64,000 nt of DNA from Bacteroidia bacterium. GTDB taxonomy: Bacteria; Bacteroidota; Bacteroidia; UKL13-3. The translations under genes and the position numbers were made by a program. The notes under the pieces were generated by a model. That model had not been told where the DNA came from. It did no database searches and was given only the letters and a program-made list of their open reading frames with translations. The DNA is taken from contig JBILVK010000002.1 of NCBI GenBank assembly GCA_044370475.1, positions 9,383-73,382 on the forward strand. The letters run 5' to 3'. Shown here in pieces: positions 661-15,007 of this stretch. Each line of letters starts with the position of its first letter. Position 1 is the first letter of the stretch.

Positions 661-1256
661 AGAAAATTCTAGTGGCCATATTGCTTCTTTGCAATGTCCA
701 TTCACAGGCACAAAATCTGAGCGAAATATTTACCAAAAGCTATGCTTCAGAAAAAGCAGGTAATTACAGCGAAGCAATAACTCAGATGCAGGGGCAAACC
801 TACAGTGCTGTTTACGAAGTAAACTTGCGCTTGGGATGGTTGTATTATGCTAATAAAAAACACAATGAATCTATTGCCTATTATCAAAAGGCAATCTCGC
901 TTAAGCCCATGGCTACAGAGCCTATTTGGGGTCTTATTTACCCACTTAGCGCCCAAGAAAAGTGGAATTCGGTGGAACAAGCTTATAAAGATATTTTAAA
1001 ATTAGACCCCAAAAACTCAAAGGCAAACTATTATTTAGGTTCCATTTATTTTTACCGAAAAGACTATAACAACGCTAGAAAGTTCTTACAAGAAGTTGTA
1101 AATCTTTACCCATTTGATAGGGAGGCGGGTCTCTTATTGGCTTGGAGCTATTACTATTTAGGAAATAAACCAGAAGCCAAGAAAATGTTTCAACATGTGT
1201 TAAATAATAAGCCAGATGACGCATCGGCATTGGAGGGTTTATCTTTAATAAAATAA
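648..1256 (+). CDS. secreted TPR-repeat protein
   Basis: N-terminal signal peptide (LLLCNVHSQAQ). Repeated A-x-x-Y-Y-x-K-A-hydrophobic-x-L-x-P TPR-like units. Confidence 0.7.
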   Translation: MSTLKKILVAILLLCNVHSQAQNLSEIFTKSYASEKAGNYSEAITQMQGQTYSAVYEVNLRLGWLYYANKKHNESIAYYQKAISLKPMATEPIWGLIYPLSAQEKWNSVEQAYKDILKLDPKNSKANYYLGSIYFYRKDYNNARKFLQEVVNLYPFDREAGLLLAWSYYYLGNKPEAKKMFQHVLNNKPDDASALEGLSLIK

Positions 1257-1273
1257 TTCCTTACCTTTATCGC

Positions 1274-1663
1274 GTGAAAGATTTAAAGAAGTATTACATC
1301 ATTCCAGCCCCTCCAGAGGATGTTTATTTAGCCCTTACCAATGAAGCAACCATGATGTTGTGGACAGGTGATCAAGCAAGTTTTGTGGCCGAGGTAGGTG
1401 CAGAATTCTCCATGTGGGATGGTAGTATTTTGGGTAAGAATTTGGAATTGGAGCCTAGTAAGAAAATTGTTCAACAATGGTTTTTTGGTGATGAGGAGAC
1501 CGATACGCCAAGTATTGTAACCATGAAACTACATCCACATAACCAAGGTACTTCTTTGGAAGTGAGGCATACCAATATTCCAGACGAAGAGTACAATGAT
1601 ATTGCAGATGGCTGGACAGCCGAATATGTTGGTTCATTGATTGACTTTTACGAGGAAGGTTAA
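1274..1663 (+). CDS. SRPBCC / AHSA1 (activator of Hsp90 ATPase-like) domain protein
   Basis: 129 aa, GTG start. The IPAPPEDVYLALTNEATMMLWTG opening is typical of the START/AHSA1 superfamily. Confidence 0.55.
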   Translation: MKDLKKYYIIPAPPEDVYLALTNEATMMLWTGDQASFVAEVGAEFSMWDGSILGKNLELEPSKKIVQQWFFGDEETDTPSIVTMKLHPHNQGTSLEVRHTNIPDEEYNDIADGWTAEYVGSLIDFYEEG

Positions 1664-1685
1664 GCATTTAGTGCCCCAAAAATCA

Positions 1686-2357
1686 TCACCATTTTATAGG
1701 TTCAATGTTATTTTGGAATAAATAGGCATTCGTTTTACTGAAATGTTTGCATTCAAAAAATCCTCTATGAGCCGAAAGGGGAGAAGGATGCGGAGCTTCT
1801 AAAACAAGGTGTTTTGAGCTATCTATCAATATTTTTTTGCTCTGCGCAAAGCTACCCCAAAGCAAGAATACAATGTTATGATGCTGCAGGCTAATCTGCT
1901 TTATTACCTCATCAGTAAATTCTTCCCAACCCTTTTTTTGATGCGACCCTGCTTGATTTGCACCTACTGTGAGGGTAGCATTTAACAAGAGTACTCCTTG
2001 CTCTGCCCAATGAATTAAATTGCCGCTCAACGGGATTTTATAGGAAGGAATATCAGCTTGTATGCCTTTAAATATATTGCGCAAAGAAGGAGGGAAGTCT
2101 ATTCCGTCATTCACAGAAAAACTTAAACCATGGGCTTGGTTCAGACCGTGATAAGGATCTTGGCCCAAAAGAACTACCTTGACTTGATGAAATGGTGTAA
2201 CATGAAAGGCCTCAAAGATTTTGGGTCCGGGTGGGTAAAACACCTTGCCTGCTTGTTTTTCAGCCTTTAAAAACGCAATAAGCTGCCTAAAGCTAGGTCT
2301 TTCTAGTGCCTCCTTTAAAACAAGTTTCCAGCTATCTTCAATTTGAATGTTAGACAT
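1686..2357 (-). CDS. ung: uracil-DNA glycosylase, family 1
   Basis: GQDPYHGLNQAHGLSFSV and HPSPLSA motifs. Start moved to the internal ATG (MSNIQIEDSW) by comparison with E. coli Ung as I remember it. Confidence 0.93.
   Translation of the reverse strand: MSNIQIEDSWKLVLKEALERPSFRQLIAFLKAEKQAGKVFYPPGPKIFEAFHVTPFHQVKVVLLGQDPYHGLNQAHGLSFSVNDGIDFPPSLRNIFKGIQADIPSYKIPLSGNLIHWAEQGVLLLNATLTVGANQAGSHQKKGWEEFTDEVIKQISLQHHNIVFLLWGSFAQSKKILIDSSKHLVLEAPHPSPLSAHRGFFECKHFSKTNAYLFQNNIEPIKW
2136..2148 (-). repeat. iterated motif copy, TTGGTTCAGACCG
   Basis: 13 of 15 match to the TTGGTTCAGACCGAA word. Lies inside ung and encodes HGLNQ on the coding strand. Confidence 0.8.
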
Positions 2358-2428
2358 GTTGTTGTGCAAGTTACATAATTCAGCATTTTTAATTTGCATT
2401 TATGCTCTCTGGCGTTCACTTTTGCCGT

Positions 2429-3241
2429 ATGGACCATAAAGAAATAATTGAAAAAGCTTGGGAAGATCGTTCCCTTTTAACAGATACAACTACACAGCAG
2501 GCAATAAATGAAGTGATAGAGAAGCTAGATAAGGGCGTTTTACGAGTGGCCGAACCTACCTCAAATGGTTGGCAGGTAAATGATTGGGTTAAGAAGGCTG
2601 TGATCTTATATTTCCCTATTCGGAAAATGGAAACTTACAACGTTGGACCCATGGAATACCACGATAAAATGGCACTTAAAACCAATTATGCAGAATTGGG
2701 TGTTCGTGTAGTTCCTAATGCCGTTGCGCGATATGGTGCCTACTTAAGTAAGGGCACTATTTTAATGCCAAGCTATGTTAATATTGGTGCTTATGTTGAT
2801 GAAGGAACCATGGTAGATACCTGGGCAACTGTTGGTAGTTGTGCGCAAATAGGTAAGCATGTTCACTTAAGTGGTGGAGTGGGAATTGGTGGCGTTTTAG
2901 AGCCTGTTCAAGCTGCTCCCGTAATCATTGAAGACAATTGCTTTATTGGTTCAAGATGTATAGTTGTTGAAGGAGTACACATTGAAAAGGAGGCTGTTTT
3001 AGGTGCTGGTGTTACCCTAACCATGAGCACAAAAATAATTGATGTAACGGGTCATGAACCCATTGAATACAAAGGTCGCGTACCTGCACGCTCGGTTGTA
3101 ATTCCAGGTTCATATACCAAACAATTTGCAGCTGGTTCTTACCAAGTTCCTTGTGCTTTAATTATTGGTCAAAGAAAACCTAGTACAGATTTAAAAACAT
3201 CTTTAAATAACGCACTTCGCGAATACGACGTAGCAGTATAA
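2429..3241 (+). CDS. dapD: 2,3,4,5-tetrahydropyridine-2,6-dicarboxylate N-succinyltransferase
   Basis: N-terminus MDHKEIIEKAWEDRSLL and hexapeptide-repeat body (GAYVDEGTMVDTWATVGSCAQIGKHVHLSGGVGIGG). Start chosen at the second ATG. Confidence 0.88.
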   Translation: MDHKEIIEKAWEDRSLLTDTTTQQAINEVIEKLDKGVLRVAEPTSNGWQVNDWVKKAVILYFPIRKMETYNVGPMEYHDKMALKTNYAELGVRVVPNAVARYGAYLSKGTILMPSYVNIGAYVDEGTMVDTWATVGSCAQIGKHVHLSGGVGIGGVLEPVQAAPVIIEDNCFIGSRCIVVEGVHIEKEAVLGAGVTLTMSTKIIDVTGHEPIEYKGRVPARSVVIPGSYTKQFAAGSYQVPCALIIGQRKPSTDLKTSLNNALREYDVAV

Positions 3242-3246
3242 ATAAG

Positions 3247-4155
3247 TTAATGTCCCCCGCCTTTCATCATTTTAAAAATATGAAGTAAGGCTGGGAATAC
3301 AGCATCCATTGATTCTTCTGCGCCTCTTGTGCTGCCTGGTAAGGCAAGTACAACCGTATTTCCAATAAGTCCGCATACACTTCTAGAAAGCATAGAATAT
3401 GGCATACGTTGTTGTCCATAATTTCTGATGGCTTCTGCTATGCCAGGAACTTCTTTTTCAATCAAGGGTTGCAAAGCTTCTGGCGTAACGTCAGTAGGTG
3501 AGAGTCCGGTACCCCCTGTAATTATTAATAAATCAATGCCATTGGCACAATGGTTTTTTACCCTATTCTGTATCTCACTTACCTCATCGGGTATCACAAT
3601 ATAATGTGTGTTTGCAAAGCTCATGGCTTCTAGTTTTGCCATAATAGCCTTGCCGGCTTTATCTTCTTTTTTCCCCGCAGAAATACTGTCGGAACACACA
3701 ATTACCGCCGCTTTTAGTTTATCCCCAATATTATTTTTGAAGTCGCTCTTGCCACCTTTTTTCTCAATTAATTTTATCTGCTTAATTTCAATTTGCTTGT
3801 CAATGGGCTTCAACATATCATAAATGGTTAAAGCAACAACAGATGCCCCATGCATGGCCTCAACTTCTACACCTGTTTTATAAATGGTGGAAACCTCTAC
3901 AAAAATTCTAATCTCCAAACCTTCCAATTCATAGGTTATGGCTGTTTGCTCTATGGGCAAAGGATGGCAATCTGGAATCAATTCACTGGTGCGCTTAACC
4001 CCAAATAAACCAGCCGTTCTAGCCATTTCTAATACATCTCCCTTAGGCACACGTTTATTTATAAGTGCATCCATGGTTTGGTTCGAACCAACCACAACGG
4101 TTGCGCTGGCAATTGCTCTGCGGTAAGTATTCGATTTATAGGTTATGTCTATCAT
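3247..4155 (-). CDS. moaC: bifunctional molybdenum cofactor biosynthesis protein MoaC/MoaB (cyclic pyranopterin monophosphate synthase fused to a MogA/MoaB-like domain)
   Basis: The N-terminal half resembles MoaC (KGDVLEMARTAGLFGVKRTSELIPDCHPLP). The C-terminal half resembles MoaB/MogA (IITGGTGLSPTDVTPEA). Confidence 0.88.
   Translation of the reverse strand: MIDITYKSNTYRRAIASATVVVGSNQTMDALINKRVPKGDVLEMARTAGLFGVKRTSELIPDCHPLPIEQTAITYELEGLEIRIFVEVSTIYKTGVEVEAMHGASVVALTIYDMLKPIDKQIEIKQIKLIEKKGGKSDFKNNIGDKLKAAVIVCSDSISAGKKEDKAGKAIMAKLEAMSFANTHYIVIPDEVSEIQNRVKNHCANGIDLLIITGGTGLSPTDVTPEALQPLIEKEVPGIAEAIRNYGQQRMPYSMLSRSVCGLIGNTVVLALPGSTRGAEESMDAVFPALLHIFKMMKGGGH
4078..4091. repeat. iterated motif copy, palindromic variant TTGGTTCGAACCAA
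   Basis: Perfect 14-nt palindrome inside moaC/B (encodes VGSNQ). Confidence 0.75.
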
Positions 4156-4160
4156 TGTAA

Positions 4161-4595
4161 TTATTGATTAATTTTCCATCTACTTGCTTCATCGTTAAAC
4201 AACTCTTTTCCCCAAATTGGAACTTCTTTTTTGATGCGCTCTACCAGGTATTCACATGATTCAATGGCTAACTTTCTGTGTTTAGATGAAGTAAATACAA
4301 ATAAGCAAATTTCTCCAGCATTTACTAGGCCTAAGCTATGATAAATGTGCATGCAAGTGAGGTCATATTTGGCAAAACAATCTTCTCTAATGATATCTAA
4401 AATGGGTTCGGCCATATCTAAATAACACTCGTAATTGATGCCAATAACTTCTATATCGTCTATCTTGTCATTGCGCACCTGACCTAAAAAAATATTATGT
4501 GCACCAATGTCTTTTTTAGTGCTGTGCTTGGTAATAGATTCGGCTATAAACGCAGGCGAAATAGCACCTTCCACAAAAACTTTTTTCTTACTCAT
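4161..4595 (-). CDS. moaE: molybdopterin synthase catalytic subunit MoaE
   Basis: 144 aa. FLGQVRND region and position in the operon next to moaC/B. Confidence 0.82.
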   Translation of the reverse strand: MSKKKVFVEGAISPAFIAESITKHSTKKDIGAHNIFLGQVRNDKIDDIEVIGINYECYLDMAEPILDIIREDCFAKYDLTCMHIYHSLGLVNAGEICLFVFTSSKHRKLAIESCEYLVERIKKEVPIWGKELFNDEASRWKINQ

Positions 4596-4598
4596 GCC

Positions 4599-4826
4599 TC
4601 AAAGTTTTATAATATCAATAATGTGAACCGGACAATTTACCATAGCTCTTTTGTTTTCATCATACTCCCAATCTGGTATGTTTACATTAAACATACCACG
4701 TTTTTCAACAGCTCCCACCAAGTTAGATTTGCCATCAATTCTACTCACACCCCATCTTTGCGGAGCAGCCTCCACACAGGCATTGCAGCCAATGCACTTG
4801 TTTCTTTGCTGAATAATTTTATACAT
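4599..4826 (-). CDS. small single-cluster ferredoxin (about 75 aa)
   Basis: CIGCNAC ... CP cysteine pattern. ATG at 4826 overlaps the last 8 nt of the U32 gene. The track's longer start is a TTG. Confidence 0.7.
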   Translation of the reverse strand: MYKIIQQRNKCIGCNACVEAAPQRWGVSRIDGKSNLVGAVEKRGMFNVNIPDWEYDENKRAMVNCPVHIIDIIKL

Positions 4827-6078
4827 CCTGTGCGTCAACAATTTTATAAAGCTTATCAGAATTCCTCACCTTTTCTGGCAAAATCAAGGAGAAAATATCT
4901 CCTTTGCTTACCTCATTTACCACCTTGTCATCCACACGCAACTCCCCAACAATGCTCTCCTGATAACCACTGCTTGGCCCCATCACAATTACCTTATCAC
5001 CCACTCGCAATTGGTGACTTTCTGCTTTAAATTCTGCTACACCCAATTTAGCAAAATAGTTCATTCCTTTACCAATATAAATTTTCTTTTGGGTAGCCTT
5101 AGAACCATACTCATCATTCCATTCGCCCATCTTCCTGCCTAAGTAATATCCATCCCAAAAACCCCTATTAAACACAGTAGATAAGCGCGTTTTCCAATCC
5201 AATAACTTCTCCTCAGAGTAGCTTTTATCGTAATATGAATCAATTGCCTCTCGGTAACATTTAGTTACTGTATACACATAATCTGCCGAGCGTCCTCTTC
5301 CTTCAATCTTCATTACCTTAACCCCTGCATCTATTATTTTATCAATAAAATCAATGGTGCAAAGGTCCTTGGCCGACATAATATATTCATTGTCTATCTC
5401 AAATTCTATGCCTTCATCTTTATCTGTTACCACATAATTTCTTCTACAATTTTGTATGCATGCACCTCTGTTTGCAGATGCATTATGCGAATGCAAACTC
5501 AAATAACATTTGCCAGATACTGCCATGCATAAAGCTCCATGAACAAAGATTTCTACCTCTATAGGCTTACCGGCTGGACCACAAATATTCTTTCTTTTTA
5601 TCTTAGAACAAATCTCCGCAACCTGCTTTAATGTTAGCTCCCGAGCCAAAACCACCACATCGGCAAAGGTGCTATAAAATTCTACCGTTTCAACATTAGA
5701 AACATTGGCTTGCGTAGAAATATGTACCTCAACACCCTCCTTATATGCAGTACTAATAGCCGCATGATCTGCCGCAATTATTGCCGTAATTCCTGCTTTT
5801 TTAACCGCCTTCACAATGTCCTTCATCAACCTAATATCATGGTCGTATAAAACAGTGTTTAAAGTAAGGTAAGTCTTAACGTTATGCTGCCTTCCAATCT
5901 CTGCAATTTTATCTAAATCATGCAAAGTGAAATTGTTGGTAGAACGCGCGCGCATATTCAATTGCTCCACGCCAAAATAAACAGAATTACACCCTGCTTG
6001 TATAGCCGCCATCATCGATTCATAGGAACCCGCTGGCGCCATTAATTCAATTGCTGTTTCTTTGCTAAATGTTGTCAT
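4819..6078 (-). CDS. U32 family 'peptidase' (family of the RlhA/TrhP/UbiU-type prephenate-dependent hydroxylases)
   Basis: U32 signature E-I-F-V-H-G-A-L-C-M-A-V-S-G-K-C-Y-L-S and N-terminal ELMAPAGS. 419 aa. Confidence 0.9.
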   Translation of the reverse strand: MTTFSKETAIELMAPAGSYESMMAAIQAGCNSVYFGVEQLNMRARSTNNFTLHDLDKIAEIGRQHNVKTYLTLNTVLYDHDIRLMKDIVKAVKKAGITAIIAADHAAISTAYKEGVEVHISTQANVSNVETVEFYSTFADVVVLARELTLKQVAEICSKIKRKNICGPAGKPIEVEIFVHGALCMAVSGKCYLSLHSHNASANRGACIQNCRRNYVVTDKDEGIEFEIDNEYIMSAKDLCTIDFIDKIIDAGVKVMKIEGRGRSADYVYTVTKCYREAIDSYYDKSYSEEKLLDWKTRLSTVFNRGFWDGYYLGRKMGEWNDEYGSKATQKKIYIGKGMNYFAKLGVAEFKAESHQLRVGDKVIVMGPSSGYQESIVGELRVDDKVVNEVSKGDIFSLILPEKVRNSDKLYKIVDAQDV

Positions 6079-7333
6079 AAAATCTATTTTGAATAGCTAT
6101 TGATTCTCCATGAATTTTGTTAAAAACCTCTGTGATAAAATCCTTATCTAAGCCAAATTTACTGGCCTCTACAAGCCTTTTCCTCAAAGTTAACTCCCAT
6201 TGTTCGGTCTGAACCAAAGCCATGTTTAAAGTCTTTTTTACCTCTGCTATTTTTGTTACTATTTCTTTTCTTTTTGCTAGCATTTCTATCATTGATGTGT
6301 CTAAACTGTTCAATGCAAATCGCAAATTCTCTAATGAGCTTTGTGCTTCCTTATGAAGCTTGTTTTCTTCATCAATTAACTCATCATTCGACTGATTTTT
6401 ATTAGTATCAGATAAGGGAATATTTACCTCATTATCCTTACCTGGTAAGCTATCAATTTTCTCAATTGTATTTATATCAAAATCCTTTTCAACGCTAGCT
6501 CGGTTCAAACCGAAATTGTTTTTAAAAATTGATTCACTGCTATTCTTACTTTCTGTTTTTTTGTTGCTAATTGTAGGCGCTAAGTCCAATGATTTTTCTG
6601 CACCAACCGACGAGTAATCGCTTTCATAAAATGTATTGTACAAAGAATGATAGCTCAGCATTTTATTTGCCAAAGGCTTGCCAATTCCACATATTATTTT
6701 TATGGCTTCATTGGCTTGAAGGCAGCCTATAACTCCCGCCAGAACGCCTATTACACCAGCTTCTTCGCAGTTTTGAATGTGCATCCCACTTGGCTCATTA
6801 GGAAATAAATCTCTGTAGTTTTTACTATAGCCTTCATTCATTTTAAGGTTAAATACAGAAACCTGTCCTTCATACCTAGAAATTGAGCCATACACCAAGG
6901 CTTTGCTATGTCTTACACATGCATCATTCAACAAATACCGAGTGGCAAAATTATCTGTGCCATCAATAACCAAATCATACTCTGTTAGGATAGAATCCAC
7001 ATTGTTTGTTTGCATTTCGTGTGGGTAGGTCTGAACCAAGCATTGTGCATTGATTTCTTTAACTTTTTTTGCCGCTTGCTCAGCCTTTAATTTGCCAATA
7101 TCATTTGAAGTATATAATATTTGCCTATGTAAATTGCTTTCTTCTACTACATCAAAATCAACAATTCCTATTTGTCCAACTCCCGCCGAGGCTAAATAAA
7201 TCAATGCCGGACAGCCAAGTCCGCCCGCACCTACCACAAGAACTTTGGCTTCAAACAACTTCTTTTGTTCTACTAAACCAAAATTTGGCAAGCGCATTTG
7301 CCTAGCGTATTTATGGTAGTTTAAATCTTCCAT
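6065..7333 (-). CDS. moeB: MoeB/ThiF-type adenylyltransferase fused by a low-complexity linker to a C-terminal chorismate-mutase-like (AroQ) domain
   Basis: N-terminus VLVVGAGGLGCPALIYLASAGVGQIGIVDFDVVEESNLHRQ is the ThiF/MoeB fold. Start overlaps the moaD stop (TAATG). The last ~89 aa align by eye to E. coli CM. Confidence 0.8.
   Translation of the reverse strand: MEDLNYHKYARQMRLPNFGLVEQKKLFEAKVLVVGAGGLGCPALIYLASAGVGQIGIVDFDVVEESNLHRQILYTSNDIGKLKAEQAAKKVKEINAQCLVQTYPHEMQTNNVDSILTEYDLVIDGTDNFATRYLLNDACVRHSKALVYGSISRYEGQVSVFNLKMNEGYSKNYRDLFPNEPSGMHIQNCEEAGVIGVLAGVIGCLQANEAIKIICGIGKPLANKMLSYHSLYNTFYESDYSSVGAEKSLDLAPTISNKKTESKNSSESIFKNNFGLNRASVEKDFDINTIEKIDSLPGKDNEVNIPLSDTNKNQSNDELIDEENKLHKEAQSSLENLRFALNSLDTSMIEMLAKRKEIVTKIAEVKKTLNMALVQTEQWELTLRKRLVEASKFGLDKDFITEVFNKIHGESIAIQNRFYDNI
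6068..6334 (-). other. chorismate-mutase-like domain (last ~89 residues of the MoeB-like protein)
   Basis: LENLRFALNSLDTSMIEMLAKRKEIVTKIAEVKK...ESIAIQN. Equivalents of EcCM Arg11, Arg28, Lys39, Glu52, Ser84 and Gln88 are visible. Asp48/Arg51 equivalents are not. Confidence 0.6.
6203..6217 (+). repeat. iterated motif copy, exact TTCGGTCTGAACCAA
   Basis: Exact 15-mer. Encodes LVQTE in the CM-like domain. Confidence 0.9.
6501..6514 (-). repeat. iterated motif variant CGGTTCAAACCGAA
   Basis: One core mismatch. Lies in the linker of the MoeB-like protein (encodes FGLNR). Confidence 0.6.
7028..7039 (+). repeat. iterated motif copy GGTCTGAACCAA
   Basis: Exact 10-nt core plus AA. Encodes LVQT in the ThiF domain. 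Confidence 0.8.
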
Positions 7334-7575
7334 TAGCCTCCAGAAAATGGGGGTAACAAGGCCACTTCATTTCCTGCCTCAAGAACATAATCTGCACCAA
7401 CAATTTTCTTGTTTACAGATACTAAATATTCTATTTCATTGAGCAATGGATAGGTCTTAGCCAATTGAGCTTTTAAGGTAAACACACTATCTACTAAGGG
7501 CAAGTTGCAAACATGCTGCTGCATAATTTCTGCTATTTGTCCAAAAGCTAAGACCTCAATTGTTTGATTTGCCAT
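7333..7575 (-). CDS. moaD: molybdopterin synthase sulfur-carrier subunit MoaD
   Basis: 80 aa ending in the Gly-Gly C-terminus (PPFSGG). ATG at 7575 chosen because the longer form in the track begins with TTG. Confidence 0.8.
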   Translation of the reverse strand: MANQTIEVLAFGQIAEIMQQHVCNLPLVDSVFTLKAQLAKTYPLLNEIEYLVSVNKKIVGADYVLEAGNEVALLPPFSGG

Positions 7576-7635
7576 AGAAATTTTTACCCGATAAGGAATG
7601 CTGCAAAAATGAGCATTTTTTTCCTTACTTGGCAA

Positions 7636-8394
7636 TTATGTTAAAACTAGTTTTATAGCTGCCATCAGAAGCACTACTGCCAAAATTCGTTTTAATGCCA
7701 CAATAGGAAGTTTTTTAGCGCCAAAATATGCGCCCAAACTTCCTCCCAATAAAGCTAAAAGTAGCATCCATAAAAAGTTATGGCTATGCACATTATCCAT
7801 GTCAAAAAACAATGCAAGGCTGCCACTTTTAAATAGACCAAAGAGTCCAGCCAATGAATTTACAGCAATAAATAGTGCACTTGTAGCCGAGGTTTCTTTA
7901 AAGTTTAACCACCCTAAAAGCAATAGGAGGGGCGATAAAATTATTCCACCGCCAATACCTATAACGCCCGAAATAAAACCAATTGAGGCTCCAATCAAAA
8001 GGCTGTAGAATATAGAAAATTCTTTTATGGCCGACTCTTTAATCTCATAAAAACCAAAAAGTCGCACTATGGGAATTGTCAATAATAGCGCGAGAATGGG
8101 CCTGTAATATCCATGGCCTATGTTTAAGAATCCGCCCAAAAACGCGGCTGGAATTGACCCCAAAACTAGAAAGAAGAATAGTCTCCAATTCAATTGTACC
8201 CTCGACTTAAACTGAGTAAAACTAATGAGTGAAACAAGTATGTTCAACACCAAAGCACTTGGTTTCATAATGCTGGGCGAAAAGCTAAATAAAGCCATTA
8301 AGGCCAAATAACCACTTGCTCCGCCATGACCAACCGATGCATATAAAAAGGCAATAATAGGCAGGACTATATAAAACAAAAGCTCCCAGTTCAT
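7636..8394 (-). CDS. TauE/SafE (DUF81) family anion permease
   Basis: Polytopic membrane protein with ASVGHGGASGY and GIGGGIILSP motifs typical of TauE/SafE. ATG at 8394 chosen because the track start is TTG. Confidence 0.78.
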   Translation of the reverse strand: MNWELLFYIVLPIIAFLYASVGHGGASGYLALMALFSFSPSIMKPSALVLNILVSLISFTQFKSRVQLNWRLFFFLVLGSIPAAFLGGFLNIGHGYYRPILALLLTIPIVRLFGFYEIKESAIKEFSIFYSLLIGASIGFISGVIGIGGGIILSPLLLLLGWLNFKETSATSALFIAVNSLAGLFGLFKSGSLALFFDMDNVHSHNFLWMLLLALLGGSLGAYFGAKKLPIVALKRILAVVLLMAAIKLVLT

Positions 8395-8402
8395 GCTTCT
8401 AA

Positions 8403-9599
8403 TTACTTCCAACAATCGTCAAATAAATGAATTTCTATAGGAGTTCCTTCACTAACCATAGCAATCTCTTGAGGCAATATGGCAATGCAATTTGCTTCAC
8501 TAAATGCATTTAGTTTATAGGATTCTTGTCCATCACATAAATAAACAAAACCTTGTTCTAACCTAGCTTTTAGGAAATGAGTTAGGCCCACTTTTTTGGT
8601 GTAATCATGTCCAAGTGGATATTTTTCTAGGCCATAGGGATGGTAAGTTAAACCCATCATTTTTCTTATGGTAGGCACTACATATTCATAACAACAGCTT
8701 AAAACAGAGGCCGGATTTCCAGGCAAACCAAACACCATGGTTTCCCCTTTTTTACCAAAGAACAAAGGTTTACCTGGCTTCTGTTTAACCCTGTAAAATA
8801 TGGCCTCTACGCCATTTTTATGAAAAGCTCTTTCTACAAAATCAAAATCGCCAACAGAAATCCCACCGCTCACCAAAAGAACATCACAACAAGCAAGTCC
8901 TTCCTCAATGGCCGCAATCACATCTTCCTCAAAATCATCCACGGTTTTTTTATGCAAAAATGACAAGCCCGCGCCTTGCATCAAAGCCTCCAACATCCAA
9001 GAATTACTCTCGTAAATTTGTCCGTGCTGCAATACTTCACCAGGCATAACAAGCTCCTTACCTGTTAAAATTAAACCCAGTTTTGGTGCAGGAACCACCG
9101 CAACTTCATGTATGCCCAATCCAGCCAAATAGCCAATTAAACCGGGGTTTAAGCGCTTTCCAGCCCTCAATGCAATTTCGCCTTTTTTTATTTGCGATCC
9201 CATTTTTCGAATGTGGGTACCAAGGGTAAAAGCATGGTCTTTAATGCGAATAAAGTTGCTTTCCAGATCAACATGCTCCTGCATCACAACCGTGTCGGCA
9301 CCAACTGGAATGGCTGCTCCCGTAAAAATTCTTATTGCCTTACCAGCTTCCAAACTTAAAATTTCGGTGTCTCCGGCTTGTGCAATTCCCATCACTTCTA
9401 TGGGCGTTTCGGTTCGAACCGAACCCAATGCGACAGCATAACCATCCATAGCAGACTGTGCAAATGGGGGCGAATTGAGCGGTGAAATGATATCCTCTGC
9501 AAGTACTTTCCCAACACAATGATTGAGGTTCATAATGCTTGCTGGTAACATTTTGCAGGTCAATTCTACTCGGTTTTTTGCCTCATCAACGGTAATCAT
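8403..9599 (-). CDS. moeA: molybdopterin molybdotransferase MoeA
   Basis: 398 aa with SPPFAQSAMDGYAV and LVSGGISVGDFDFV motifs. Confidence 0.9.
   Translation of the reverse strand: MITVDEAKNRVELTCKMLPASIMNLNHCVGKVLAEDIISPLNSPPFAQSAMDGYAVALGSVRTETPIEVMGIAQAGDTEILSLEAGKAIRIFTGAAIPVGADTVVMQEHVDLESNFIRIKDHAFTLGTHIRKMGSQIKKGEIALRAGKRLNPGLIGYLAGLGIHEVAVVPAPKLGLILTGKELVMPGEVLQHGQIYESNSWMLEALMQGAGLSFLHKKTVDDFEEDVIAAIEEGLACCDVLLVSGGISVGDFDFVERAFHKNGVEAIFYRVKQKPGKPLFFGKKGETMVFGLPGNPASVLSCCYEYVVPTIRKMMGLTYHPYGLEKYPLGHDYTKKVGLTHFLKARLEQGFVYLCDGQESYKLNAFSEANCIAILPQEIAMVSEGTPIEIHLFDDCWK
9408..9423. repeat. iterated motif copy, palindromic variant TTCGGTTCGAACCGAA
   Basis: Perfect 16-nt palindrome inside moeA (encodes SVRTE). 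Confidence 0.8.
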
Positions 9600-9608
9600 A
9601 AGTGATAT

Positions 9609-10589
9609 TTATCCTCCAATTTTTATCATACTTCGGTTCACAATATTTTCTGCCTGGGTATCTTCATAGTTATCAGAAAATTGTCCGCCTTGCCTAGCTT
9701 TCTTTTGCTGTACCGATTGTTTAATGATAGGTAAAATGTCTATGCCGGCCCTTAAATTGGCCAGCAAGTTGCTTTCTTCGGCAGAAAACAAGCAGTTCTT
9801 TATCTGTCCATCTGCTGTAACTCTTAGCCTGTTGCAATCGCCACAAAACGGCTCACTCATGGTGCTAATAACAGCAAAAGTTCCTTTAAAATCTGTAACC
9901 TGATACTTCTTAGCGGTATCATGTTTAAAATCTTCTAATTTTTGAATAGGGTAGTGCTCGCGCAGTTTGTTTAATATTTCTACATGCGTAAAAACCTTTT
10001 GATGCTCCCAATCATTGCCAGAAAATGGCATGTATTCTATAAAGCGAATATGCAAGGGTAAATCTTTGGTAAGAGCAACAAAATCTGAAATCTCATGCTC
10101 ATTAACCCCCTTCACAACCACCATATTTAATTTAACATGGAATTGATTTTTTAGCATCAATTCAATATTGTCCCATACCTTTTCAAAAGCATGCCTTTGT
10201 GTTAATTGCTTAAAAGTCTCCTTGTTTAGAGAATCAATGCTAATATTTACCGATTTAATTCCAGAAGTTTTAAGCAGCTCCAGGTGCTTATCTAGTAAAA
10301 AACCATTGGTGGTAATGGTTAACTCTGCACCAAGCTCAGATAAATTATGAAGAATTGTATGAATATCTTTTCTTACCAAGGGCTCACCGCCCGTAAGTCT
10401 AATTTTTTTAATGCCTTGTTCAACAAATAACTTTGCTATAGAAAATATTTCGGAGGCACTCATTAACTCCTCGCCAGGCATAAACTTCATTTCCTCGTGA
10501 GGCATGCAATACAAGCACCTAAAATTACATTGATCGGTTAAAGATATCCGCAAATAATCATGTACCCTGCCAAACGAATCCTTCAACAT
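9609..10589 (-). CDS. moaA: GTP 3',8-cyclase MoaA (radical SAM)
   Basis: CNFRCLYCMP radical-SAM motif and C-terminal CGDCNRLRVTADG cluster motif. Confidence 0.94.
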   Translation of the reverse strand: MLKDSFGRVHDYLRISLTDQCNFRCLYCMPHEEMKFMPGEELMSASEIFSIAKLFVEQGIKKIRLTGGEPLVRKDIHTILHNLSELGAELTITTNGFLLDKHLELLKTSGIKSVNISIDSLNKETFKQLTQRHAFEKVWDNIELMLKNQFHVKLNMVVVKGVNEHEISDFVALTKDLPLHIRFIEYMPFSGNDWEHQKVFTHVEILNKLREHYPIQKLEDFKHDTAKKYQVTDFKGTFAVISTMSEPFCGDCNRLRVTADGQIKNCLFSAEESNLLANLRAGIDILPIIKQSVQQKKARQGGQFSDNYEDTQAENIVNRSMIKIGG

Positions 10590-10602
10590 ATTAAACGCTT
10601 CT

Positions 10603-10610
10603 CAAAGCTA
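10603..10610 (-). promoter_or_regulatory. candidate Bacteroidota -7 promoter box TAGCTTTG upstream of moaA
   Basis: Matches TAnnTTTG, 13 nt upstream of the moaA ATG. Confidence 0.35.
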
Positions 10611-10723
10611 TTAGATTAAAAATATATTTTTTCAAGGTCAATACCCGCTTTCAAAAGTTTAATTATTTGTTTTTGCTTACCTAATATTCTGCCCAAATCA
10701 CCCATTAAACAAACCCAAAACCC

Positions 10724-10760
10724 AACGACCAAAGACTAACGACCAAAGACCAACGACTCT
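10724..10760. repeat. 14-nt tandem repeat, about 2.6 units of AACGACCAAAGAC(T/C)
   Basis: Direct reading gives AACGACCAAAGACT AACGACCAAAGACC AACGACTCT, in the moaA upstream spacer. Confidence 0.7.
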
Positions 10761-10794
10761 ACCTTCGCTAAAGCTACGGCAGACAAAGCAAAAA

Positions 10795-11478
10795 CTAACT
10801 CCTCTTAAAGTTCTTAAAATTCCTGTTCTTATTCTTATTAAACTTATTCCTATTTTGGTTATTTCGGTGCTGACCACCATTGCTGTATTTGTCTTCACCA
10901 ATCGCATTTACCTTGCGTTGTTGCATGTTTTTAAACTGCAAATCATCACTCTCACTAATGCTAATTTTTCCCTGACTCAAATTCTCCAAATGAGCCATTA
11001 CCTCATCATCATTCAACATCTCCAAATTCCATGCTTTAGAACTCATTTTCATGAACGAACCAATCGCATTGATATAGGCCGTACGCATCGGACCTTCCTC
11101 AAACTCCGCAACACGTTCAATTATTTTTGGAACAATTTTACCGTAAAATCTAAACCTTATTTTTGATTGAGGATAGCCAAGAGGGTCTGGCTTCGATTTA
11201 ATGCTCTCTGCACTTGGCATTGGGTATGGAGAATCTACATCCAATTTAAAATCACTCATTACAAACAAGTGATCCCATAACTTGTGCTTATAATCGGCAA
11301 CATCCCTTAAATGCGGGTTTAATTGCCCCATTAATTTGATGATGTCATTTGCTATGGTCTGACGGCGCTCTCTAACAGGCTCCTCAACCGCCACTTCTAT
11401 CATTCTTTGAATGATTCTTCCGTATTCAGAAATAAGCAATTTGCCTCTTTCTGTGTTATATTCTAAACTTAAACTCAT
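10795..11478 (-). CDS. DUF4290 family protein with a basic Asn/Lys/Arg-rich tail
   Basis: EYGRIIQRMIE...NPHLRDVADYKHKLWDHLFVMSDFKLDVDSPYP matches my recollection of DUF4290. Confidence 0.75.
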   Translation of the reverse strand: MSLSLEYNTERGKLLISEYGRIIQRMIEVAVEEPVRERRQTIANDIIKLMGQLNPHLRDVADYKHKLWDHLFVMSDFKLDVDSPYPMPSAESIKSKPDPLGYPQSKIRFRFYGKIVPKIIERVAEFEEGPMRTAYINAIGSFMKMSSKAWNLEMLNDDEVMAHLENLSQGKISISESDDLQFKNMQQRKVNAIGEDKYSNGGQHRNNQNRNKFNKNKNRNFKNFKRS

Positions 11479-11498
11479 GCGTTGTGTTGCAAGATAAA

Positions 11499-13169
11499 TT
11501 ATTTTATTGAATTCCCAATCAATTCGCGTGCTGCCGCTAATACCTTATCAGATGGATTCTCCCCACTCAACATGCGCGCAATTTCCTCAACGCGCTCTTG
11601 CGGACTTAACGATTTAATGGCCGTTTGTGTTTGCTCTCCCTCATTTGTTTTGTAAACATACAAATGTTGATTGGCTTTTCCTGCAATTTGAGGAAGGTGA
11701 GAGATAGCAATAATTTGATGAGATTGTGCATGCTCCCTCATCACAGTAGCAACTTTTTGAGCCGCTTCACCAGAAATACCACTGTCTATTTCATCAAAAA
11801 CCACGGTAGGCAATTTAACCTGGTCTGCAATTAAAGATTTAATGCATAGCATTAACCTACTCAACTCACCGCCACTCGCCACTTTGTTAATAGGCTGTGG
11901 GGCAAATCCCTTATTTGCAGAAAACATAAAAACCACCTCATCCATTCCAGAACCAGTTGCTTTTTCAAAGGCCAAATGCTTCAAATCAATATCAAAATTG
12001 GCATTCGGCATCGCCACCTGTACCAACAAAGAATTAACCTGTTCCAAAATTTTGGGTATGGCCAATTTCCTTTTTTTTCTCAAATTTTCCCCAGCATTCT
12101 CGGCACTTTCAGCATGCTTTTTCAATTGCCCACTTACTTTTTCAATCTCCTCATCCAAAGAACCAATCGCTTCCAATTGCCTTTCCAATTCCTGCCTCAA
12201 CGCAATCAATTCCTCAATGCTAGTTAACCTATGTTTCTTTTGAACTGCATATATCGCCTGTAACCGAGCCTCAGTTGTTGCCAATAAATTTGGGTCAGAA
12301 AGAGTCTTCTCTGCAATTAAATTCAACTCTGTAGCAATGTCTTTTAGGTCAACCAAATTACTTTCTAACCTCTGCATAATACTCGCCAACCCTTCTTGAT
12401 GCTTGGCTGCGGGCTGCAACAATGCCTTGCATTCGCGCAACATGTCAACTATGCTCTGCTCATTTCCATCCAATATATTTCCGGTCTGAACCGATACCTG
12501 CTGAATGGTTTCAGCGTGTGTTAATTCATCCAGCTTCTTTTCTAAATCTTCCTGCTCACCAAGCTTTAAATCTAGTCCCTGCAATTCACTCAAAACAAAA
12601 TTTAAATAGTCCTCATCTTGCTTTGCTTTGCTCTCCCTCTCCAATAAATCTTGTAAATATTTCTTGCTCTTTTGAAACTCCTTAAAACACTTTTGGTAAT
12701 GAATCAAGTCCTCTCCATTATTCGCAATCGCATCCAAAACAGATAATTGAAAAGCAGATTCATTCAACTCCAATGTTTCATGCTGAGAAACAATATCAAC
12801 TAAGCTTAATCCCAATGCCTTTAGTACCGGTAAATTAACAGGAGTGTCGTTTATAAAAGCCCTAGATTTGCCCGCCGCAGTAAGCTCTCGCCTTATGATA
12901 CACTGTGGCTCATAATCCAATTCATTCTGAGTAAAAAAGTCTGTTAAACGATACGCATCAATGTCAAAATGTGCCTCAACAACACACTTATCTGCCCCTT
13001 GTAAAATAACTTTAGAGTCGGCTCGCTCCCCCAAAATCAACCCCAAAGCGCCCATTAATATCGACTTACCAGCACCTGTCTCGCCAGTAATAATACTTAG
13101 CCCAGAATGAAAATTTATTTCACTCTGCCTAATAATGGCATAATTCCTGATTTTTAAACTTGTTAGCAT
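11499..13169 (-). CDS. recN: DNA repair protein RecN
   Basis: N-terminus LKIRNYAIIRQSEINFHSGLSIITGETGAGKSIL, coiled-coil middle, SGGELSRLMLC signature. Confidence 0.94.
   Translation of the reverse strand: MLTSLKIRNYAIIRQSEINFHSGLSIITGETGAGKSILMGALGLILGERADSKVILQGADKCVVEAHFDIDAYRLTDFFTQNELDYEPQCIIRRELTAAGKSRAFINDTPVNLPVLKALGLSLVDIVSQHETLELNESAFQLSVLDAIANNGEDLIHYQKCFKEFQKSKKYLQDLLERESKAKQDEDYLNFVLSELQGLDLKLGEQEDLEKKLDELTHAETIQQVSVQTGNILDGNEQSIVDMLRECKALLQPAAKHQEGLASIMQRLESNLVDLKDIATELNLIAEKTLSDPNLLATTEARLQAIYAVQKKHRLTSIEELIALRQELERQLEAIGSLDEEIEKVSGQLKKHAESAENAGENLRKKRKLAIPKILEQVNSLLVQVAMPNANFDIDLKHLAFEKATGSGMDEVVFMFSANKGFAPQPINKVASGGELSRLMLCIKSLIADQVKLPTVVFDEIDSGISGEAAQKVATVMREHAQSHQIIAISHLPQIAGKANQHLYVYKTNEGEQTQTAIKSLSPQERVEEIARMLSGENPSDKVLAAARELIGNSIK
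12482..12493 (+). repeat. iterated motif copy CGGTCTGAACCG
   Basis: Exact 10-nt core inside recN (encodes SVQTG). Confidence 0.8.
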
Positions 13170-13227
13170 GTTTCAGGAGCGAATATATGAATTACATGTA
13201 TGCTGTTTTCCACAGCTCCTAAGTCAA

Positions 13228-14802: not shown

Positions 14803-15007
14803 AACAATGAACTTATTTGGTGTTTTTAGGAAAGCAAAATAGTGATTTTCATGCATTTTTTCTATCTTCCCAAACTATTCCTTGTAGAAAGGAAGATTTG
14901 CACCTTACTTGTTAACATATTCCTTAGCTTTTGTGGAAAGCTTGTGAATATTGCATGGGTAGCAATTTCTTAATTTGTGATAGGAAGAAAGCTGTAATAC
15001 AATCAAA

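Follow-up and report, generated by a model that had tools for sequence, protein, structure and literature searches.

A chorismate mutase–U32–ferredoxin module, probably a passenger, in the molybdenum cofactor operon of an uncultured Bacteroidota clade

In a 64,000-nucleotide stretch of Bacteroidia DNA (hereafter the window), one operon combines the full pathway of molybdenum cofactor (Moco) synthesis with a module made up of a chorismate mutase (CM) domain, a U32-family Fe–S protein and a ferredoxin. We consider it probable that this module is unrelated to its host operon, that it hydroxylates a macromolecule and that it has no chemical role in Moco synthesis.

The operon consists of nine closely packed minus-strand genes (moaA, moeA, tauE, moaD, moeB::CM, U32, ferredoxin, moaE and moaC/B). 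A sequence-only reading had already given this order, and it held: all of the ORFs were found in place, and scans against Pfam and NCBIfam, which supply the gene identities, confirmed their domains. The first gene, moaA (9609–10589), encodes GTP 3′,8-cyclase, a radical SAM enzyme (TIGR02666, 357 bits, cut-off 284; Radical_SAM and Mob_synth_C). It is followed by moeA (8403–9599), which encodes molybdopterin molybdotransferase (MoeA_N, MoCF_biosynth and MoeA_C), and by tauE (7636–8415), which encodes a TauE/SafE-family membrane protein (PF01925, 107.7 bits). The tauE gene occupies the same operon position in loci L001, L089, L091, L093, L019 and L097/98 and is a lineage-typical, conserved member of the Moco operon. 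The sulfur-carrier subunit MoaD (80 aa; ThiS and TIGR01682, with a C-terminal GG) is encoded at 7333–7575; its ORF is listed as 7333–7635 from a TTG at 7635, homologues are called at 76–80 aa, and the true start is probably the ATG at 7575. The moeB–CM ORF (6065–7333) encodes a MoeB (ThiF) adenylyltransferase domain (residues 1–245, 6599–7333; PF00899, 263 bits), an N/K/S/D/E-rich low-complexity linker delimited by alignment of the fusion proteins (residues 246–327, 6353–6598) and an AroQ-type CM_2 domain (residues 328–422 plus the stop codon, 6065–6352; PF01817, 55.6 bits, cut-off 27), the Pfam domains themselves spanning residues 9–235 (ThiF) and 338–415 (CM_2). Downstream lie the genes for the U32-family Fe–S protein (4819–6078; 419 aa; PF01136, 232 bits), the ferredoxin (4599–4826; 75 aa; CxxCxxC...CP; Fer4_15 and Fer4_13) and MoaE, the molybdopterin synthase catalytic subunit (4161–4595; PF02391, 86.5 bits). 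The last gene is a moaC/moaB fusion (3247–4155; NF002947, 406 bits, cut-off 285) that joins cPMP synthase to an MPT adenylyltransferase-like domain.

Three overlaps reported by the same reading were recovered directly in the sequence: TAATG is common to the moaD stop and the moeB start, the end of moeB–CM and the start of U32 share 14 nt, and the U32 stop and the ferredoxin start (ATG at 4826) share 8 nt. A further 13 nt overlap joins moeA and tauE. Because the remaining junctions are also overlaps, or gaps of only 3–9 nt, the nine genes are very likely to be co-transcribed. The intergenic region 5′ of moaA (10590–10794) is, from reading the sequence, the presumed promoter region of the operon; it contains TAGCTTTG at 10610–10603 on the minus strand, which fits what we take to be the Bacteroidetes −7 consensus, TAnnTTTG. 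An Rfam search of positions 1–16000, with the Moco motif included, returned no match, riboswitch or other, at E ≤ 1.

In the fusion protein, the CM domain stands where other Bacteroidota MoeB/MoeZ proteins have a rhodanese domain, a replacement that had been missed earlier. Among the MoeB homologues in the matches listed, the ThiF+CM_2 architecture occurs in only nine protein clusters, all of them top-ranked, and the other Bacteroidota proteins are nearly all ThiF+Rhodanese, with a few, mostly shorter, consisting of ThiF alone. The window ThiF domain is 55–63% identical to MoeB of relatives that have rhodanese instead of CM. We rejected an assembly artefact as the source of the fusion, because ThiF+CM_2 recurs with identical gene order in at least five diverged relatives. 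The fusion alignment places an insertion of about 68 aa in the linker of the window protein, absent from a relative whose U32 protein is 98% identical; no tandem repeat was found in this linker. The CM domain keeps the equivalents of EcCM R11, R28, K39, S84 and Q88, with R51 and E52 replaced; R51 is lost in U32-linked CM copies and kept by most of the CM family. Its Q48/W52/H81 signature is shared by CM domains that form fusions with DAHP synthase and with prephenate dehydratase; two DAH7PS–CM proteins investigated as bifunctional enzymes come from Prevotella nigrescens and P. gingivalis (PMC8408635, PMC12202928).

All of the inspected fusion loci are syntenic, running from recN and a DUF4290 gene through moaA to moaC/B and, where the contig extends so far, on to dapD and UDG, and they form a single clade in the U32 tree. 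In L097 and L098, the closest relatives that lack the fusion, the Moco genes keep this order but the module is absent, and MoeB has a rhodanese domain where the fusion clade has CM. That the module stands among Moco genes goes back to one rearrangement, confined to a small uncultured Bacteroidota clade. The published Moco operon of F. johnsoniae also has no U32 gene (PMC12758843). Between the window and L091/L093, the U32 proteins are 88–90% and the ferredoxins 87–91% identical, against 62–64% for MoaA, 53% for MoeA, 43–47% for MoaD, 57–63% for MoeB, 45% for the CM domain, 70–71% for MoaE and 72–75% for MoaC/B. This difference within the clade (87–91% for U32 and ferredoxin, 43–75% for the Moco proteins) means that the U32 and ferredoxin genes evolve as housekeeping genes do. 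The module is most likely a passenger rather than an added step in cofactor synthesis. Of the two explanations offered earlier, a housekeeping RNA hydroxylase placed into the operon is favoured by the evidence.

Conservation of the pair was surveyed in 80 species-level loci or genomes (82 loci for the CM count) from Bacteroidota, Ignavibacteria, Balneolia and Chlorobi. Orthologues of the window U32 protein are 60–72% identical across these groups, and in 76 of the 80 species a ferredoxin orthologue lies directly downstream. The sole exception to a single U32 gene is L085, with two copies in tandem. A CM gene stands beside U32 in eight of the 82 loci (L005, L010, L047, L069, L030, L035, L043 and L075). 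Among the 144 immediate neighbours of the pair, 197 Pfam families are represented, of which CM_2 is the commonest (6); no other exceeds four, a count that DinB_2/DUF1569 reach within a single clade. With CM_2 as the only recurrent extra partner, the idea that CM, U32 and ferredoxin constitute one genetic module is well supported. The pair is away from any Moco gene in 78 of the 80 species, and about 95% of the orthologues are distant from Moco genes. U32 and ferredoxin are an ancient, closely linked, self-contained pair that occurs in otherwise unrelated contexts.

We predict that the window U32 protein is an O2-independent, prephenate-dependent hydroxylase of an FCB-group subfamily, most likely acting on tRNA. 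Its cysteine motif, C184-X6-C191-X15-C207-X3-C211, is invariant in the family and agrees with the published motif of U32 oxidases (PMC11574389). For the modelled C-terminal barrel (pLDDT >90), the top match is the C-terminal domain of a U32 protein from Geobacillus (4he6/4he5; TM 0.83–0.88), followed by the tRNA-binding domains of IF2 and EF-Tu (domain II); TrhP has a domain of this kind and UbiU has none. Orthology to E. coli TrhP, RlhA or UbiU was rejected on the basis of 25–31% identity, the family models (the NCBIfam TrhP model gives 200 bits where the cut-off is 534) and the U32 tree, in which the window family forms its own branch, well apart from all three. The sequence-only reading had held that the adjacency to Moco genes would be incidental if the protein clustered firmly with tRNA/rRNA hydroxylases located outside Moco loci in close relatives. 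Half of this picture was found, because the U32–ferredoxin orthologues do sit outside Moco loci in relatives, but the firm clustering was not, the family being on a separate branch.

Several features nevertheless ally the window protein with TrhP (YegQ), the prephenate-dependent tRNA U34 hydroxylase of E. coli: a Peptidase_U32 TIM barrel with a four-cysteine motif, a C-terminal β-barrel (by its 4he6-like fold in the window protein, by PF16325 in TrhP), a size of about 420–450 aa and a genetic link to prephenate, which in the window group runs through the adjacent or fused CM. A ferredoxin, YfhL, is reportedly required in the E. coli TrhP pathway (Lauhon 2019, J Bacteriol). The window protein differs in lacking a TrhP insertion of about 50 aa and in a C-terminal domain without a sequence match to PF16325; its ferredoxin, very likely co-transcribed, is of the single-cluster Fer4_15 type and no YfhL orthologue, and its substrate is a prediction. 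The Bacillus proteins TrhP1/TrhP2 (YrrN/YrrO) rank with TrhP among the nearest known counterparts. RlhA, the 23S rRNA ho5C2501 synthase, is likewise prephenate-dependent (PMC5727448) and shares the U32 domain, the cysteine motif and 28% identity, but the window protein lacks DUF3656 and the long C-terminal extension, and FCB taxa hold a separate RlhA1 gene besides this family. PepU32#4 and RlhA1 are the only classes of U32 protein in those taxa, and Bacteroidetes have TrmR, with TrhO and TrhP absent from the anaerobic members (supplements of PMC6599085). By elimination, the window protein appears to fit the uncharacterised PepU32#4/PrtC subfamily (Kimura 2017, Sakai 2019; P. gingivalis PrtC included), with which it shares the taxa (Bacteroides, Flavobacterium, Chlorobium), a length of about 415 aa and the lack of DUF3656. 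Our literature search found no function, ferredoxin partner or CM association for this class.

It seems unlikely to us that U32–ferredoxin(–CM) is kept in strings of Moco genes through real functional coupling with molybdenum metabolism, whether by hydroxylation of a pterin-, Moco- or molybdoenzyme-related substrate, by a ferredoxin that also reduces the Fe–S clusters of MoaA, or as a co-regulated anaerobic oxidation toolkit together with molybdenum hydroxylases. Coupling would account for three separate Moco-linked arrangements in lineages that do not group in the U32 tree: moeB::CM–U32–ferredoxin–moaE in the window clade; moaC/B, U32–ferredoxin and a xanthine-dehydrogenase-type (XDH-family) Mo-hydroxylase, whose start overlaps the ferredoxin stop, in L019; and U32–ferredoxin directly after moaE in L064. 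It would also fit the retention of the embedding across the clade despite the divergence of the Moco proteins, and the PTPS/QueD-family (pterin-type) genes near the pair in L004, L010 and L047. The adjacency in L019 and L064 exceeds pure-chance expectation (three Moco-type neighbour genes in two genomes against about 0.4 expected among 144 slots, a rough estimate that takes Moco and molybdoenzyme genes as about 0.3% of a genome), but this is suggestive and statistically weak, and the excess is lost after correction for the many pathways that might have been noticed; a Moco-specific role is therefore unlikely. We know of no step in Moco synthesis that needs hydroxylation. The module is missing at the corresponding place from L097/98, the closest relatives by Moco operon, and from L099, a Saprospiraceae relative of L064. 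The pterin- or sulfur-carrier-related substrate proposed earlier thus loses ground: nearly all orthologues lie far from Moco genes, the module is missing from the otherwise identical Moco operon of L097/L098, and the Moco genes have a much higher rate of evolution than U32 and ferredoxin. Moreover, several Bacteroidetes strains have no Moco genes whatever (PMC12758843), although most Bacteroidetes are listed with PepU32#4.

We regard as quite improbable a hydroxylase of a small molecule (a quinone, an aromatic or a kynurenine-pathway intermediate) that takes over anaerobically from an O2-dependent monooxygenase, in the way that UbiU/V take over from UbiI/H/F. Lipophilic aromatics are indeed substrates of UbiU/V (PMC6747719, PMC10990095), which are U32 Fe–S proteins that use prephenate as oxygen source (PMC10990095). 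UbiU is about 30% identical to the window protein, and YhbP-family genes occur near both systems: in seven loci the ferredoxin is followed by a YhbP-like (PNPOx-fold) gene, and in E. coli about 1.5 kb separates yhbP from ubiT. In L010, CM–U32–ferredoxin is co-directional with genes for an FAD monooxygenase, tryptophan 2,3-dioxygenase and a fatty-acid desaturase and with the PTPS gene. However, such neighbours each occur in one or a few loci only; UbiU and UbiV form a heterodimer, whereas FCB loci other than L085 have one U32 gene, with neither a second U32 partner nor an SCP2/UbiT-like lipid carrier adjoining the pair in the surveyed loci. The translation-factor-type barrel is shared with TrhP, not with UbiU, and UbiV (292 aa) has no room for it. 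The quinone of the FCB group is menaquinone, not the ubiquinone of the Ubi system, and 60–72% identity across the superphylum is commoner in enzymes that act on invariant macromolecules. Chlorobium species are listed with PepU32#4, but neither TrmR nor TrhO is recorded for the Chlorobi of the occurrence table (supplements of PMC6599085); a simple mo5U role therefore fits badly, which favours a small molecule. Finally, a collagenase-type, PrtC-like peptidase with irrelevant neighbours, as the database names 'putative protease' and 'collagenase-like protease' and the presence of P. gingivalis PrtC in the PepU32#4 class (PMC5727448) would have it, is barely credible given the invariant Fe–S motif, the obligatory ferredoxin partner and recurrent CM genes, Pfam and NCBIfam scans that returned no secretion-related domain, and genetically defined U32 functions that are hydroxylation factors in every case.

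Before the rearrangement the operon had the order moaA–moeA–tauE–moaD–moeB(+rhodanese)–moaE–moaC/B. In the ancestor of one small uncultured Bacteroidota clade, CM–U32–ferredoxin was inserted between moeB and moaE; the ThiF part of moeB was joined in frame to CM, and the stretch that encodes rhodanese was lost. With that domain gone, sulfur for MoeB would have to come from a separate sulfurtransferase, as for E. coli MoeB. In the reading that we prefer, a passenger that hydroxylates a macromolecule, the CM domain would convert chorismate to prephenate. The U32 enzyme, supplied with electrons through the ferredoxin, would take oxygen from prephenate and hydroxylate a conserved macromolecule, most probably tRNA U34 (ho5U, then mo5U through TrmR). 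Operon membership would give the module co-expression at most, and no chemical part in Moco synthesis. The operon would carry a three-part kit for O2-independent hydroxylation, comprising a CM domain, a U32 protein and a ferredoxin, that occurs almost everywhere in Bacteroidota.

Nine packed open reading frames (ORFs) were found on the minus strand at 3247–10589, as the sequence-only reading had described, and Pfam and NCBIfam scans gave their identities: moaA (9609–10589; TIGR02666, 357 bits), moeA (8403–9599; MoeA_N, MoCF_biosynth and MoeA_C), a tauE/safE-family membrane protein gene (7636–8415; PF01925), moaD (7333–7575; ThiS family, C-terminal GG), a fusion of moeB to a chorismate-mutase (CM) domain (6065–7333; ThiF at residues 9–235 and CM_2 at residues 338–415, 55.6 bits against a gathering cut-off of 27), a U32 gene (4819–6078; PF01136, 232 bits against a cut-off of 22.4), a 75-amino-acid (aa) single-cluster ferredoxin gene, or Fdx (4599–4826; Fer4_15/Fer4_13, CxxCxxC...CP), moaE (4161–4595; PF02391) and a moaC/moaB fusion (3247–4155; NF002947, 406 bits). 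Direct reading of the sequence also bore out the reported overlaps of moaD with moeB (TAATG), of moeB–CM with U32 (14 nt) and of U32 with the ferredoxin gene (8 nt); the remaining junctions are overlaps or gaps of 3–9 nt, except that tauE is separated from the preferred ATG of moaD by about 60 nt. By Pfam and NCBIfam the Moco set (MoaA, MoaC, MoaD, MoaE, MoeB, MoaB/Mog and MoeA) is complete in this operon, from which mobA is absent. No molybdoenzyme was detected among the ten large window ORFs scanned, nor any xanthine dehydrogenase (XDH) by tblastn across the 64-kb window, and no further U32, CM, rhodanese, XDH, YhbP or PTPS gene was found there. The sole sizeable intergenic stretch of the operon is the 205 nt upstream of moaA. 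An Rfam scan of the first 16 kb (E ≤ 1) matched no family, Moco riboswitch included, upstream of or within the operon, and a sigma-70 promoter and terminator scan, ill-suited to Bacteroidota promoters, returned counts similar to those of shuffled sequences.

The window U32 protein has thousands of homologues in Bacteroidota at 70–75% identity. Scanning one genome per species placed orthologues of 60–72% identity at 80 loci spanning Flavobacteriales, Chitinophagales, Sphingobacteriales, Cytophagales, Saprospiraceae, Bacteroidales, Balneolia, Ignavibacteria and Chlorobiota, which were annotated by comparison with the window proteins and by clustering of neighbouring genes (L-numbers denote these and other comparison loci). 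At 76 of the 80 loci, the gene that directly follows U32 encodes an orthologous 75-aa ferredoxin, and the two genes usually abut or overlap. The 144 nearest other neighbours fell into 197 Pfam families, among which CM_2 was the commonest with six members; the rest had four or fewer, DinB_2 and DUF1569 reaching four through the same neighbour gene in four loci of one clade (L009, L011, L018 and L021). After a profile search, the CM count stood at eight of 82 loci outside the window clade, in addition to the clade that carries the moeB–CM fusion. A stand-alone CM of about 100 aa lies directly upstream of U32, overlapping or near its start, in L005, L010, L047 and L069; an 88-aa CM just follows the ferredoxin in L030; and in L035, L043 and L075 the CM domain forms the C terminus of a divergent neighbour. 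The earlier proposal that CM, U32 and ferredoxin constitute a module is upheld by these data, as the ferredoxin linkage and the CM as the recurrent further neighbour indicate that U32–Fdx is an old and autonomous gene pair, repeatedly accompanied by a chorismate mutase of its own.

Several loci depart from or extend this arrangement. Among the 80 sampled genomes, a ferredoxin directly after U32 is missing only in L070, L073, L079 and L082 (three Marinilabiliales/Prolixibacteraceae-type Bacteroidales and one Chlorobi MAG), where it may be encoded elsewhere or replaced. Tandem U32 genes (8900–10258 and 10258–11499) precede the ferredoxin in L085, a Bacteroidetes MAG (8900–11729), a duplication resembling the TrhP1/TrhP2 and UbiU/UbiV pairs. 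At L010 (7386–13628), co-directional genes encode a FAD monooxygenase, tryptophan 2,3-dioxygenase, CM, U32, ferredoxin, a fatty-acid desaturase, a PTPS/QueD-family protein and a weak globin-like ORF, such that O2-dependent enzymes adjoin a predicted O2-independent hydroxylase; PTPS/QueD-family genes also lie near U32–Fdx in L004 and L047. In seven FCB loci on two separate tree branches, a YhbP-family gene (PNPOx fold, putative FMN-binding) directly follows the ferredoxin (L016:11463–11912, L017:11418–11903, L028:11469–11933, L052:1764–2240, L057:11462–11902, L062:1857–2288 and L065:11462–11893). E. coli yhbP (L088:1473–1916) lies about 1.5 kb from ubiT–ubiU–ubiV, and YhbP is a possible accessory factor of U32 hydroxylases that has gone unrecognised.

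Four cysteines of the window U32 protein (C184-X6-C191-X15-C207-X3-C211) are invariant in 26 homologues and are the predicted 4Fe–4S ligands; CX6CX15CX3C is the published U32 motif that ligates such a cluster (PMC11574389). Identity to E. coli TrhP, RlhA and UbiU is 31%, 28% and 30%, respectively, by MAFFT (25.6%, 28.2% and 28.5% by tblastn). The protein scores below the NCBIfam equivalog cut-off for TrhP (NF011996; 200 against 534 bits) and below those for UbiU (153 against 440 bits) and UbiV (54 against 275 bits). It is encoded by a single gene, unlike the paired paralogues UbiU and UbiV, and no UbiT-like gene was found in the 64-kb window. Whereas RlhA carries DUF3656 (73.9 bits in E. coli RlhA) and a long C-terminal extension, the window protein matches PF01136 only. 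The sequence-only reading had raised the prospect that the U32 protein would cluster with tRNA/rRNA hydroxylases encoded outside Moco loci; orthologues outside Moco loci were indeed found, but the window family does not cluster with these hydroxylases and forms its own tight branch in a neighbour-joining tree. On these sequence comparisons, it belongs to none of the characterised U32 families.

The C-terminal region of the protein offers a further comparison. PF16325 (Peptidase_U32_C), which scores 75 bits in E. coli TrhP, has no sequence match in the window U32, and a PDB sequence search gave zero matches. The AF2 model of residues 310–419 is a barrel (pLDDT >90) that best matches crystal structures of a C-terminal domain from a Geobacillus U32 protein (4he6 and 4he5; TM 0.83–0.88, r.m.s.d. 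1.0–1.2 Å), followed by the domain-II barrels of IF2, EF-Tu and eIF5B; a fold search with the full-length protein brought up generic TIM barrels, and 5d88 came no higher than rank 37. Given that the C-terminal U32 domain is present in E. coli TrhP and absent from UbiU, the modelled barrel suggests a TrhP-like architecture. The supplements of Sakai et al. (2019) list only two U32 classes, RlhA1 and PepU32#4, for Bacteroides, Flavobacterium and Chlorobium (PMC6599085), so that by elimination the window U32 would be PepU32#4, a subfamily that includes P. gingivalis PrtC (Kimura et al. 2017, PMC5727448). TrmR is present in all listed Bacteroidetes, and TrhO and TrhP are both missing from the anaerobes Bacteroides, Parabacteroides, Porphyromonas and Capnocytophaga (PMC6599085); on the argument from TrmR without TrhO or TrhP, the same authors suggested that PepU32#1 and HP0169 stand in for TrhP (PMC6599085). 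Taken together with the TrhP-like architecture, this argument favours tRNA U34 as the predicted substrate of the window U32. Countering it, the listed Chlorobi lack TrmR and TrhO, yet Chlorobium species have PepU32#4 (PMC6599085). Prephenate-dependent, O2-independent hydroxylation by the window U32 is likewise predicted, with genomic support from the CM adjacency at eight of 82 loci and in the fusion clade.

Orthology of the ferredoxin to E. coli YfhL was considered and rejected, as the BLASTP match (E = 0.013) covers 15 residues in which CxxCxxC alone aligns. YfhL is a 2×[4Fe–4S] dicluster protein, whereas the window ferredoxin has four cysteines in all, finds its best Pfam matches in the single-cluster families Fer4_15 and Fer4_13, and resembles mono-cluster ferredoxins.

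The window CM domain exceeds the CM_2 gathering score and reaches no NCBIfam CM equivalog cut-off. The active-site residues of E. coli CM (EcCM) are R11′, R28, K39, D48, R51, E52, S84 and Q88 (PMC5526877). Aligned with EcCM, all 13 U32-linked CM domains keep R11, R28, K39 and Q88, and 11, the window domain among them, keep S84. Position 48 has Q in place of D, position 52 has W, Y or F (in one domain A) in place of E, R51 has been lost, and position 81 carries a conserved His. An exhaustive CM profile search of 1.84 billion representatives retrieved 1,062 at E ≤ 1e-10 (a word-indexed search gave seven hits only, with no U32 fusions). The best 150 of the 1,062, with 179 aligned CM domains, include none with the canonical R51–E52 pair of EcCM, and most carry W/Y/F52–H81. 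Proteins P0248–P0255 and about 20 others, of roughly 190–230 aa, have two tandem CM_2 domains that belong to this AroQ subgroup with W52/H81. The signature also occurs where a CM domain is joined to DAHP synthase or to prephenate dehydratase, indicating that it is lineage-typical rather than U32-specific. The idea that the pocket had been remodelled around the prephenate C4-OH (D48Q, E52W and H81), yielding a prephenate-presenting subunit instead of a mutase, was therefore rejected as a U32-specific property; loss of R51 is the sole feature specific to U32-linked copies. Prevotella nigrescens and P. gingivalis have DAH7PS–CM fusions that are studied as bifunctional enzymes (PMC8408635, PMC12202928). 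The CM domain is probably a functional mutase that descends from the housekeeping one.

The fusion of CM to MoeB is narrowly distributed. In a search with the MoeB–CM protein, the ThiF+CM_2 architecture occurred in only nine protein clusters, all nine top-ranked; nearly all other listed Bacteroidota MoeB proteins were ThiF plus rhodanese (PF00581), and a few, mostly shorter, were ThiF alone. The window MoeB has kept its ThiF domain (PF00899, 263 bits), and its C-terminal rhodanese is replaced by a linker and CM_2; with the rhodanese domain of L019, a Flavobacteriales MAG, as query, no rhodanese was found elsewhere in the 64-kb window. The inspected fusion loci share one order, recN–DUF4290–moaA–moeA–tauE–moaD–moeB::CM–U32–Fdx–moaE–moaC/B, with dapD and UDG next where the contig extends; L001 differs downstream. 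Their U32 proteins form one clade in the neighbour-joining tree, which included four fusion-clade sequences. The nearest MoeB relatives outside the fusion clade (60% identical), in L097 and L098, belong to operons ordered tatA–moaA–moeA–tauE–moaD–moeB(+rhodanese)–moaE–moaC/B; that is, the same order minus the three inserted functions. The simplest history would be a single insertion of CM–U32–Fdx between moeB and moaE, which would have left CM as an in-frame extension of the MoeB ThiF domain and deleted the rhodanese part of moeB. Fusion proteins are mostly 339–354 aa and their ThiF–CM linker is hypervariable: the window linker (6353–6598) contains a low-complexity insertion of about 68 aa, under which no tandem repeat was detected and which is absent from L089, a fusion locus whose U32 is 98% identical, and the L001 linker (approximately 7330–7750) has an independent insertion that adds about 115 aa relative to other fusions. 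Such hypervariability is expected if the linker acts as a passive tether that joins two domains folding on their own. Both fusion partners are dimeric, AroQ CM as a dimer and MoeB in the MoeB2–MoaD2 complex.

A TauE/SafE-family gene occupies the position between moeA and moaD in all Moco operons seen from this part of the Bacteroidota (for example, L097:6965–7699 and L089:7940–8698). The position is held also in relatives without the U32 module, and in L019 (5461–6192) mobA intervenes. Transport of sulfur compounds or of oxyanions is a possible role of the encoded protein.

The placement of the module within the Moco operon and the MoeB–CM fusion are genuine, stable traits of one clade, and are best read as an operon mosaic. 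Within the fusion clade, U32–Fdx evolves as core housekeeping genes do and the Moco genes do not: between the window and L091/L093, U32 (88–90% identity) and Fdx (87–91%) resemble DapD (91%, L091 only) and DUF4290 (84–88%), whereas identity is 72–75% for MoaC/B, 70–71% for MoaE, 62–64% for MoaA, 57–63% for the MoeB ThiF domain, 53% for MoeA and 43–47% for MoaD; CM stands at 45%. U32–Fdx lies away from any Moco gene in 78 of the 80 sampled species, and we know of no hydroxylation step in the established Moco pathway. No U32 is listed in the Moco operons published for Flavobacterium IR1 and F. johnsoniae UW101, and some Bacteroidetes strains have no Moco genes at all (PMC12758843); F. johnsoniae is listed with a PepU32#4 protein (PMC6599085). 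All of this speaks against a true tie of U32–Fdx to Moco function, which we regard as improbable. In its favour, two more lineages place U32–Fdx beside Moco genes, and these group neither together nor with the fusion clade in the tree. In L019 (10004–14267), U32–Fdx sits between a complete Moco operon, after a 344-nt gap following moaC/B, and a gene for an XDH-family molybdoenzyme (930 aa; Fer2, Fer2_2, Ald_Xan_dh_C and MoCoBD_1/2); that gene begins at 11475 and so overlaps the ferredoxin stop at 11478. The Saprospiraceae MAG L064 has U32–Fdx directly after moaE, an arrangement that its Saprospiraceae relative L099 lacks. By a rough estimate in which Moco-related genes make up about 0.3% of a genome, about 0.4 would be expected in the 144 neighbour slots and three were seen, in two genomes; this suggestive excess has a p value of a few per cent and is lost once the many noticeable pathways are allowed for. 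A literature search for U32 proteins in Moco synthesis found no such link; what looked like 44 mentions of U32 in one preprint were selenocysteine residue U325. A broader reading, which we consider very unlikely, is that a U32–ferredoxin hydroxylase is functionally tied to molybdenum metabolism, through Moco or a molybdoenzyme, in some FCB lineages at least. It would account for the three separate arrivals of the pair among Moco genes and for its translational coupling to an XDH-family gene in one of them. If true, it could mean, for example, O2-independent hydroxylation on a pterin or molybdoenzyme substrate, or a ferredoxin that also drives MoaA.

With the operon read as a lineage-specific mosaic, the message for Moco biology is mostly negative: annotation pipelines should not assign these genes a Moco role, although loss of the MoeB rhodanese bears on where fusion-clade MoaD gets its sulfur. 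To our knowledge, U32 proteins are the only enzymes that draw their hydroxylation oxygen from an organic donor, prephenate, and three substrate classes of U32 hydroxylases are known so far. The module resembles these prephenate-dependent enzymes in its predicted function and falls outside every characterised family; its conserved ferredoxin partner and CM association have, as far as we know, not been described previously. Nearly all Bacteroidota and Chlorobi possess the subfamily, to which the long-misnamed PrtC 'collagenase' of P. gingivalis belongs. Three of its features lend themselves to testing: a single-cluster ferredoxin that is obligatory and co-translated, a modelled C-terminal barrel of the type that binds tRNA, and a recurrent private chorismate mutase, the last of which provides independent genomic support for the prephenate link.
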